A stretch of 43,585 nt of DNA, from the IMG/VR virus record IMGVR_UViG_2529292909_000016, positions 1 to 43,585 of that record; one strand, given 5' to 3'. Source of the DNA: a virus (taxonomy: Duplodnaviria > Heunggongvirae > Uroviricota > Caudoviricetes). The position numbers were made by a program. This document shows positions 24,001 to 27,000 of this stretch, in pieces (within the stretch, counting starts at the first letter, position 1; each line of letters opens with the position of its first letter).

Positions 24001-27000
24001 CGACAAACGAATAAACACCGGACCTGACACGATAGCCGGATGCTTTATCAATCTGCAATGCAGAAAGCGTACGGAGCAGTTTCCAGGTATCCGACATGCT
24101 CCGTAACCCCGGCTTTCCGGCTGCATCCCTGCCGCGATGTATTTTTTCTCCAGCCCGGCGGTCAGCACTTTTCGCAGAGTGACATCACCCAGCTTTTTAG
24201 TCACACCGCCTGCAACCATATCCGGTACAAGCGCACCAATCAGGTTAACCCCTTTCGCTACCCAGACCGCTGAATCATCATATCCTTCAGTCATCGGTGT
24301 ATTCAGCGCCCGCTGCGCCCCCGGCGACATCTTGCCAGTCAGCCATTCATCCGAGGCTTTAGCGCCGCCACTGACTGCCTTGCCTGTGACCTTCAGACCT
24401 TTACCGACAGTATCAGTAACCGCATTTTTTCCATCAGGCAGAGTGTCGATGACCTCATCCGCCCCCTTGCTGCCACCGACAAAAATATCCTGAACAGTTG
24501 CGACTCCCGGCAGCCCCATACGGCTGAACTCATTTAAAATACGTGCCCCTGTTTTTACCGGGCTCTGAATCATCGCATCACCGAGTCCACGGGCCATTTC
24601 CCCTGTCCCCCGGACGGACTGGGCGACACCTTTCCCCATAGTTGGCAATACATCGCCCAGGCTGAACGACGTGCTGTTGTCCTTCCAGCGATTGGGATCG
24701 GAGAAAAACACATCATAGCTGTCAGTCTCTCCCGGCTGCTGAATGTTCAGGCTGTTGCGGCTCTGGTTGCCAAATTGCGCTTCAGGGCGCTGTTCATCGG
24801 AATAAGCCATACAGACTCCATAAAAAAACCCGGCACAATGACCGGGTATCAGGAAATAGTATTAACGGGAATGGTGAATTACTGCGCGTAATTCTGTTTC
24901 AGACCACGGATAAACTCAGATGCAGAGGCCGCGCTATCATCCCTGGCCTGTTCCCCCCTGGCCTTTTGAATACGGAGAAAATTCGCATACCCGTGTTCCA
25001 GCAATTTCTGATTCTGAGGCTCCAGCATTTCTGGCTGACGGGAGGCCACTTCTCTGGCAAATGCCTGCTTATCCGGATCATCACCCGCCCAACTGGTAAT
25101 CCCTTGTTGAATTTTTTGCTGCTGAATTTGCTGCTGATACTGCGGCAGTCCCATCGAAGCATAATATTGCGTCACTGCTCCCTGCGCATCACCGCCGTCC
25201 TGTGCAACCTTTATCGCTACCTGGCTGGCTCCTTTCTGAAGTTGATCCGCAGAAAGTCCCTGCTGCTTCGGCGTGAAATAGCCGAAATTTTTCGAAATTT
25301 CCGCGAATTTACTGCGATCCCTGACAAGCTCAACAGCCTTATCAACAGGCACCGCCAGCACGGTTTGATCATCAGGATGTGCACTGCCGTATTCCGTAAC
25401 GGGTTTATGTGCTGTAGAGCCATCACTGTATGTGAGATCAAGGCCGATAAGTATGTACCCTTCCTGCTGTGCCGGTACTATACTGCCAATCCTGGCCTCT
25501 TTTATCGTCTTTTTCCCGGTTGAATCGGGCATGCCAATACGCTGTTGCAGTTCCGGGCCAAACACCCCGGAAAGGACATCAAGATTCTCCGGCGTATTAA
25601 GTGAAGCGATAGCCCTGTCTGGCTTGTCATCAAAGATTTTTTGCAGGTTGTTCACGGCCTGACCCGCTTTCGCTACATAGCCATCATTCGCCATCAGCCT
25701 CAGCGGATTACCCTCTGACAACTGGCCGTAAAGACGCATTGCTGCATCCCGATCGCCAGCATCCACAGCCTTTCCAAGCGCCGCCATCACAGGCTGATCG
25801 CGCGCCAGCATATCGTTATACTCAAGCCGTCGCTGGTTGTATTTCTGCATCCGGAGTCGCTGCTGCTCCATACCCAGCGACGCATTCCGGTAATTCTGGT
25901 TGGCGTTAAACTCCCTTTGCGGGAATTTCTCACAACACGCTGCATATACCGGAGAATTTTGTCGTCCATTCTCTCACCAGAAACGGGTGCCATATCGGCT
26001 GAACCTCAGCAACCAGTTGACGGGGACTTTCGTCCCCGTCGCGGTTTTCCTACTGCTTACACTGTAAGAACGCCGCAAACTCCGCTCCCCACAAATTCAG
26101 CCGGAACTCACACAACGAGCCGTGTAACATCCAGATGGTGAAGATTACCGTCATACAAATTGTGACGGTGATGAGCGATTTTTGCGACATAGCGCTTGCC
26201 TCCTGAGTGGAGAGGCGCTAACCTTCTACTTGCTTAAGGTATGATGGTTAGGGCCTCGGGTTAAACAAAATGTTTGACTCGGGGCCTTTCCACATCAGGC
26301 CTTCAGGTTCACCTTCCAGCCATCAGCCGAAAGGCACCCGCGCATAATCTACGATTTTTGCCCTGCACGGGCAACAAAAAACCCGCCATCACAGCGGGTT
26401 ATGACATGTTGTCGGGTATTACTCAGAATTTCAGGCCAATGCCTGCAAATAAACCATCAGTTTTCCAGTCGCCAGAGCCTGAGCTTTCATAAGTGACGTC
26501 CATAGTAACACTTTCATTGAAGTTAAATTGCGCGCCGACAGACCATGCAATAGACGTTTTTTTGGTGCTGTTACTTTCAGAAAAACTACCTACACCACCA
26601 TTAAGATTGTCGTTAACTTTCAAATCATAAGTTACTTTTGCAACCGTAACACCTGCCATTGAATACACACTGAGGTATTCATTAAACCGCCACGAAGGAC
26701 CGGATAGTAGACTCCAGTAATTAGCCCTGATATCAGTTCTCGCTGAAGCTGCCGGTTTTTTTACCTCTCGTGATGGATCGGAAGGCTTAACATCAATGAA
26801 TGCCTGTGCATTAGTCATGGATCGAGCCCATGCAAAAGAGGTTATAACACCGATCTCATCCGTAATCTCATAACGATACTTAATGTTCATTCCCAAGGGA
26901 CTTTTCTCTTTACCATCATGGCCCCGGACAAACGCATCGTCATATTCTCCAGGTGAATTGAAATAGTTTTTATTCACAAAATTGTTAAAGGTATCAAGGT

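Follow-up and report, generated by a model that had tools for sequence, protein, structure and literature searches.

We analysed a stretch of 43,585 nucleotides from a virus of the Caudoviricetes (IMG/VR record IMGVR_UViG_2529292909_000016, positions 1 to 43,585), hereafter referred to as the window, and report that a small minus-strand open reading frame (ORF) at 26050..26190 very probably belongs to a type I toxin-antitoxin cassette of the hok/sok type. The ORF encodes a peptide of the Hok/Gef family, it lies within a predicted mRNA whose structure is conserved among relatives, and a candidate Sok-like antisense gene can be recognised on the opposite strand. The mok frame that overlaps hok in some relatives is cut short in the window copy, and whether this allele makes Hok is in our estimate about an even question. 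A preliminary description of the same DNA had pointed to this 46-codon ORF and had called it unannotated. The ORF was found at these coordinates. The word unannotated is accurate only for the ORF track used in that description, because the track had a 60-aa cut-off; public records do annotate the gene.

The ORF listing gives the peptide as MSQKSLITVTICMTVIFTIWMLHGSLCEFRLNLWGAEFAAFLQCKQ, 46 aa long and starting with ATG. As had been described, the ORF lies between a lom-like gene (a Lom/Ail-type gene at 26423..27160, upstream) and the gene for a 330-aa product (24879..25871, downstream). A hydrophobic stretch spans L6-L22 and both cysteines are hard-coded. In the Hok logo of a recent survey, M1, C16, T18, L30, C31, E32 and E41 are each shared by over 80% of the peptides, and all seven were found in the window peptide, at M1, C12, T14, L26, C27, E28 and E37. 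The resemblance to Hok/Gef proteins noted in the preliminary description corresponds to a significant alignment. Residues 8-44 align to positions 6-42 of the 42-position Pfam profile PF01848 (HOK_GEF) with 33.2 bits (gathering threshold 22, E 4e-8), and the full length, residues 1-46, aligns to positions 2-49 of the 50-position profile PHROG 251 ('MokW-like host killing') with 85.8 bits (E 2.8e-24). HokA is the closest named toxin with 46% identity, followed by HokW of Sp5 with 33% and Hok of R1 with 28%. No second Hok-like ORF turned up in a motif search over all six frames of the window, and PADLOC had no model matching the locus. We found 56 homologues of the peptide, nearly all of them 46 aa long.

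Public records agree with this assignment. The DNA of the locus occurs at 99.7% identity in Escherichia phage Lyz12581Vzw and many Stx2a-converting phages, where the ORF is labelled 'Hok/Gef family protein' or 'MokW-like host killing', and related DNA is present in 1551 of 5426 complete E. coli genomes. The identical protein is WP_000078907.1, named 'Hok/Gef family protein' in RefSeq and found in E. coli O157:H7 and other strains. The identical peptide is also entry 72_1589 of Hok cluster 72 in the catalogue of Escalera-Maurer et al. (bioRxiv 10.1101/2025.08.07.668861), which reports that hok is enriched in prophages and which deals with coding sequences only, explicitly leaving mok, Sok and mRNA structure undefined. 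According to the text of the catalogue, toxicity was assayed under arabinose induction, the construct made for the 72_1589 peptide being pAZ3-72_1589 (LRP157); 42 of the 45 cloned homologues were toxic, and three non-toxic ones are named; 72_1589 is not among these three. Lack of toxicity on induced expression had been suggested as a finding that would speak against a Hok toxin, and as far as this text goes the published results point the other way, so toxicity of the identical peptide can be taken as published by inference from the catalogue. The gene, its family and the exact peptide are thus already known from public annotation and this recent catalogue. Together, the profiles, the public annotation and the catalogued peptide support the reading of the ORF as a Hok/Gef-family type I toxin gene.

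In order to delimit the locus, we aligned seven loci from species-representative genomes, the best 80 loci from IMG/VR and several annotated records. The hok unit is a 375-bp cassette (window 25985-26359), and distant E. coli matches all span this same stretch. Homology between genomic contexts starts at TTGCC(C/G)-17-TAGATT and stops exactly at GGCACCC. The cassette adjoins lom in Stx-type prophages and ogr in P2-like prophages, two unrelated types, and its boundaries are common to both. It behaves as a mobile moron, which in the 933W/Stx-type (Sepvirinae-like) prophage sits just downstream of lom. The Stx-phage clade is represented by 19 distinct full-length cassettes; 10 of 10 variable hok codons are synonymous in them, and the Hok peptide is unchanged in all 19, with mok intact or broken. 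This identity is not an artefact of taking the top 80 loci, because all matches down to 76% identity were kept in the IMG/VR search.

The putative hok promoter follows directly after the lom terminator (26400-26380), and its hexamers keep their position across prophage contexts. The transcript predicted from it begins where the Rfam model RF01794 (sok) begins: in a search of 701 nt, the full model matched the hok-sense strand at 26339-26179 (41.9 bits, E 5.4e-8), and the model evidently represents the hok leader. The minimum free energy (MFE) of the 355-nt RNA is -156.3 kcal/mol (z = -8.0). In both the MFE and the centroid structures the 5' end (GGGUGCC..CGGCUGA) pairs with the 3' end (UCAGCCG..GGCACCC), and the long-range 5'-3' pairing that the preliminary description had proposed to look for is present in the fold and across relatives. 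In 48 distinct cassettes, the 15 tac/fbi pairs are paired in 92.5% of cells, compared to 23-48% with a slid partner; helix 1 (7 bp) reaches 98.5% and helix 2 (8 bp) 87.2%. For the whole projected mRNA structure the value is 92.3% compared to 37-43% for slid controls, a measure on which the structure is favoured by having been derived from the window sequence. In the same structure 23 pairs change on both sides, a count that none of 500 shuffles reaches. The clearest covariation is found in the 3' stem-loop and in a long-range helix between a variable leader patch and the 3' untranslated region (UTR).

Other folds place the 5' end differently. The RNAalifold consensus pairs positions 1-14 with 47-59, which is kept in 46-48 of the 48 sequences, and has no 5'-3' closure. 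With the RNA cut back to a point just beyond the 3' stem-loop, the predicted fold has the 5' end paired to its neighbouring segment, and positions ~105-116 are then unpaired. The 5' end thus has three mutually exclusive predicted partners, namely fbi, the ucb-like box and the adjacent downstream segment. The R1 model comprises tac/fbi, tac/ucb and a metastable 5' hairpin (PMC9841398), and the three modelled partners, together with the predicted opening of the target after trimming, are what that model describes. The exact open form is uncertain, as the consensus predicts tac/ucb and the single-sequence trimmed fold predicts a local 5' hairpin. The hairpin that had been noted 3' of the ORF is present at 26040-26019, with compensatory changes at two of its pairs (AU:27/GC:21 and AU:21/CG:19/GC:6). 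By analogy with the truncated hok mRNA of R1 (PMC9841398), it is likely to form the protective end of a 3'-processed mRNA. With no U-run behind it, the hairpin does not qualify as an intrinsic terminator on the minus strand. Read on the plus strand, positions 26018-26041 form a stem-loop followed by a T-run (CGGTTTTCCT) that the scan called terminator-like, and this might keep transcription from running into the cassette from downstream.

The preliminary description could identify neither mok nor Sok with confidence. A candidate Sok-like antisense gene is recognisable on the plus strand, while the overlapping mok frame is truncated in the window copy. The -35 hexamer of the putative Sok promoter overlaps the hok Shine-Dalgarno (SD) sequence on the opposite strand. 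The -10 hexamer TAACCT and a -35 of the form TTGNNN occur in every cassette tested, and the underlying alignment columns are invariant. At the equivalent position the R100/R1 locus reads TTGCGC-17-TATCCT, hexamers which, following work of the Gerdes laboratory, we take to be the R1 Sok promoter. The predicted Sok-like RNA folds with -31.5 kcal/mol (z = -6.5), its hairpin and short U-tail lying at 26251-26291, and 10 diverse cassettes are predicted to share this architecture, with stem sequences that differ between clades. The leader patch complementary to the 5' tail of this RNA is hypervariable and is presumed to be the recognition site of Sok. Its mean pairwise difference in the Stx-phage clade is 23.7%, with at least eight alleles in 20 sequences, compared to 0.9-2.9% for the 5' leader, the coding sequence and the 3' UTR. 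In the predicted fold of the 3'-trimmed RNA the patch is free of pairing, and in that of the full-length RNA it is bound to the 3' UTR by covarying pairs (118-345, GC:26/AU:20; 119-343, AU:27/GC:20). Because some genomes hold up to 8 matching places, the patch could act as a specificity code avoiding cross-talk between co-resident copies. The features of the locus are listed in Table 1.

Table 1 Features of the hok/sok-type cassette in the window. Column Location denotes window coordinates. Column Strand denotes the strand on which the feature is read. Promoters, transcript ends and the start of the Sok-like RNA are putative.
Feature	Location	Strand	Description
hok promoter (putative)	26346..26374	-	-35 TTGCCC 26374-26369, 17-nt spacer, -10 TAGATT 26351-26346
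hok mRNA (predicted), 355 nt	25985..26339	-	5' end at Rfam model start; 3' end at end of homology, GGCACCC
tac-like 5' element	26323..26339	-	GGGUGCCUUUCGGCUGA; pairs with 26002-25985 in MFE and centroid structures
Truncated mok-like leader ORF	26248..26295	-	MWKGPESNILFNPRP and stop; 15 codons from conserved AUG at 26295
ucb-like box	26281..26293	-	GUGGAAAGGCCCC; alternative partner of tac in the predicted 'open' form
Sok-like RNA (predicted), ~61 nt	26231..26291	+	Variable 5' tail of 15-19 nt, 18-bp GC-rich hairpin, UUUCC; start putative
Hypervariable leader patch	26226..26252	-	Complementary to single-stranded 5' tail of predicted Sok RNA
Sok promoter (putative)	26196..26224	+	-35 TTGCCT 26196-26201, 17-nt spacer, -10 TAACCT 26219-26224
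SD hairpin	26191..26219	-	AGCGC-C-UCUCC-loop-GGAGG-CAA-GCGCU; in full-length and 3'-trimmed folds
hok toxin gene	26050..26190	-	46 aa; N-terminal hydrophobic helix; cysteines C27, C44
3' stem-loop	26019..26040	-	GACGGGGACGAAAGTCCCCGTC; 99.8% paired, three pairs changed on both sides
fbi-like 3' element	25985..26002	-	UCAGCCGAUAUGGCACCC; closes full-length mRNA onto 5' end

Several results weigh against the reading as a hok/sok-type cassette. Some of them concern translation. The mok-like frame stops 57 nt before the hok AUG, and no frame starting with ATG, GTG or TTG crosses the hok start in the window. In R1, translation of mok up to the hok SD is required, and premature stops upstream of it abolish translation of Hok (PMC9841398). 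The hok SD is also predicted to be paired in both forms of the mRNA. The remaining points concern scores, covariation and termination. The best NCBIfam match, the HokA equivalog NF007290, gave 38.4 bits for a cut-off of 89, and the Hok subfamily NF007279 gave 22.7 bits for a cut-off of 73; we therefore regard the peptide as a member of the Hok family and not as an orthologue of HokA. The score for RF01794 lies below the gathering threshold of 59 bits, and the model is absent from the whole-window search at gathering thresholds. A consensus promoter scanner left the hok promoter uncalled (8 of 12 matches) and scored the Sok promoter below threshold. Because the scanner called neither, we infer both promoters from conservation and co-linearity. 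The tac/fbi helices are conserved in the 48 sequences with almost no covariation, because both of their sides are conserved, and the consensus scan found no intrinsic terminator on the minus strand after 25985.

The state of mok among relatives helps to place the first of these points. In six related loci (L034, L027, L030, L049, L036 and L010) the conserved AUG opens a frame of 61-79 aa that overlaps hok in the -1 frame, and in six other relatives the start is an AUG at mRNA position 17. In most cassettes the leader ORFs are all short (8-24 codons). Overall, the mok frame is intact in roughly one quarter to one third of the related cassettes, and the breaks are due to insertions and deletions at two sites, the variable patch and the loop of the Sok-hairpin complement. 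The strong SD of the preliminary description stands as a sequence: AGGAGG occupies 26204-26199, with a spacing of 8 nt to the ATG at 26190. Its strength has to be qualified, as it is predicted to lie inside a hairpin whose outer helix is 99.6% paired in the 48 sequences with only G-U changes. Free translation from the conserved AGGAGG, which we had considered, is tempered by this hairpin in both folds. Given the short mok, translation of hok would have to be initiated directly at the SD within the predicted hairpin, or else the output of Hok would be very low.

These results allow different explanations of the locus. That the ORF is a chance small frame with a fortuitous SD, and no gene at all, has practically no probability left. 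Its small size and the uncalled promoters are what could be said for it, and it is refuted by the Pfam and PHROG matches, by the homologues of nearly constant length, by variation in hok codons that is synonymous only, by the structured and conserved mRNA, and by the published cloning of the same peptide for toxicity testing. A silenced relic is a different matter: a true hok/sok locus that makes no Hok from its native transcript and persists by hitch-hiking in the prophage. We consider this possible, though with somewhat less than an even chance. It would account for a mok that ends after 15 codons, given the effect of premature mok stops in R1 (PMC9841398), and for an SD sequestered in both folds; the prophage is decayed, with a deletion of ~2 kb right beside the cassette, and earlier reports found the chromosomal hokA, hokB and hokC unable to mediate post-segregational killing (recounted in bioRxiv 10.1101/2025.08.07.668861). 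However, Hok is identical in every Stx-clade cassette with synonymous codon changes only, the SD is a perfect AGGAGG at 8-nt spacing, and all RNA elements and both putative promoters are intact and conserved. The lineage of cluster 72 might also have become independent of mok: insertions and deletions in the patch repeatedly break the frame, the toxin nevertheless stays under purifying selection, and hok has its own consensus SD. We hold this proposal to be tentative and rather doubtful.

For the cassette as a hok/sok system, a mechanism can be proposed from the R1 paradigm and from the structures predicted for the window. The minus-strand mRNA of 355 nt would encode the 46-aa Hok-family membrane toxin, and the plus strand would give a Sok-like RNA of ~60 nt complementary to the leader. 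The full-length mRNA would be inert, closed by tac/fbi and with the Sok-target patch held by the 3' UTR. Slow trimming of the 3' end to the stem-loop at 26019-26040 would then free the 5' end, which could re-pair locally or with the ucb-like box and so leave the target patch single-stranded. As long as Sok is present, it would bind the target, and the duplex would be destroyed or translation blocked. If Sok were lost, Hok would be made, insert in the inner membrane and depolarise it.

The cassette may help in lysis, stabilise the prophage or exclude other phages. Among prophage hok/sok loci, a role has been tested only for hokW-sokW of Sakai prophage 5 (Sp5; Takada et al. 2021, PMC8621323), and one could suppose that the window cassette likewise aids host lysis on induction and serves neither prophage stabilisation nor phage exclusion. 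The two modules occur in the same type of phage, treatment with mitomycin C led to loss of Sok, production of HokW and roughly doubled phage release in that system (PMC8621323), and VT2-Sakai-type phages carry both hok loci. On the other hand, the window Hok is only 33% identical to HokW, the cassette is found in P2-like prophages too and beside a deletion in a probably defective prophage, and the hok/sok of R1 reportedly acts in plasmid maintenance and T4 exclusion. We regard a role in lysis in place of the other two as unlikely.

Comparison to known systems shows what is shared and what is particular to the window copy. The catalogue entry 72_1589 (bioRxiv 10.1101/2025.08.07.668861) has the same peptide and the same type of predicted SD (GGAGG); the DNA that was cloned and the window sequence are distinguished by a few synonymous changes. 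The hokA-sokA locus of K-12 (b4455) shares with the window the SD AGGAGG, the ...GCACCC motif at the 3' end of the locus and two hard-coded cysteines in the peptide. HokA is 50 aa long, however, and hokA of K-12 is chromosomal and disrupted by IS150, whereas the window locus is a prophage moron. The elements follow one another as in R1/R100: tac, ucb, Sok-terminator complement, GAGGC, Sok -10, Sok -35/hok SD, hok, 3' stem-loop and fbi. We used R100 for element order only, as its hok locus is too divergent for comparison base by base (186 of 466 columns identical in a global DNA alignment). The 70-codon mok of R1 begins 9 nt after GAGG, a position where a start codon is missing from the window, and the leader ORF of the window copy ends prematurely. 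The hokW-sokW module (PMC8621323) is also a Hok-family type I toxin-antitoxin module from the same kind of Stx2 prophage. HokW has 51 aa, is HokD-like and belongs to cluster 35_712, whereas the window Hok has 46 aa and belongs to cluster 72. A search of the window for the hokW leader, tolerating up to 3 mismatches, gave no match. Identity of the window locus with the published hokW-sokW was rejected on these grounds, namely the 33% protein identity, the absent leader and the different cluster. In VT2-Sakai (AP000363.1, 60942 bp) and in locus L046 of our set, an IMG/VR contig of 60942 bp, the lom-adjacent hok lies at ~44.7 kb and hokW-sokW at ~57.8 kb, about 13 kb away, and Stx2 phages of the VT2-Sakai/933W type therefore carry two hok loci. 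The discussion in the hokW paper (PMC8621323) makes no mention of a second hok copy.

The surroundings of the cassette can be described as follows. The window is a segment of chromosome, with a 933W-type prophage from ~16 kb onward. Window 24700-25918 matches Lyz12581Vzw 53811-55029 and window 25917-26550 matches 57048-57681, so that compared to this phage ~2 kb is deleted at the 25917-25918 junction. The deletion lies immediately downstream of the cassette and has removed the counterparts of gp33-35, together with most of gp32 and the 5' part of gp36. The ORFs at the junction are 24879..25871 and 25787..25993. With the ~2 kb missing that in the phage separates the hok cassette from a 421-aa gene, the '330-aa gene' is a 5'-truncated remnant of that 421-aa gene. 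The gene with LPD38/LPD5 domains, a single coding sequence of 2793 aa in an O157:H7 prophage, appears in the window as overlapping minus-strand ORFs at 18977..24097 (1706 aa) and 23971..24810 (279 aa), a split that points to a frameshift or some other lesion in a decaying prophage.

Copies of the cassette in P2-like prophages are ~82% identical and lie at the prophage end, with ogr and the late control gene D as their neighbours (L004:3001-3374 of E. coli S1-IND-01-B and many IMG/VR loci among L056-L092). Three records with the cassette (L006, L007 and L009) are labelled Xanthomonas pisi, Planococcaceae metagenome-assembled genome and Vagococcus sp.; the first is a contig of 857 bp that is 98.5% identical to the window, and these non-enterobacterial records are probably contaminating DNA of E. 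coli or Salmonella. Elsewhere in the window, Rfam matches above gathering were STnc100 at 40953-41114 (minus strand, 76.8 bits) and sRNA-Xcc1 at 16371-16459 (plus strand, 69.1 bits), the latter near where similarity to Stx-type phages begins. In the non-prophage part, two adjacent plus-strand ORFs (11050..13476 and 13534..15960), each of exactly 808 aa, may be tandem paralogues.

As a discovery the locus has small value, being an ordinary and already catalogued prophage hok/sok cassette. Its value for annotation is that the interval from lom to the 330-aa gene is not empty: a toxin-antitoxin cassette with predicted genes on either strand lies there in full, at 25985-26374 if the putative hok promoter is counted in. 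What is mildly interesting is the combination of a truncated mok, a conserved toxin and a hypervariable patch for antisense recognition, which raises the modest point of Hok expression without an intact mok frame in the cluster-72 lineage. If this lineage were indeed independent of mok, Sok would control Hok by a structural switch of the RNA and/or by RNase III and not by blocking mok, and the hypervariable patch would be a specificity code against cross-talk among the several hok/sok copies of a cell.

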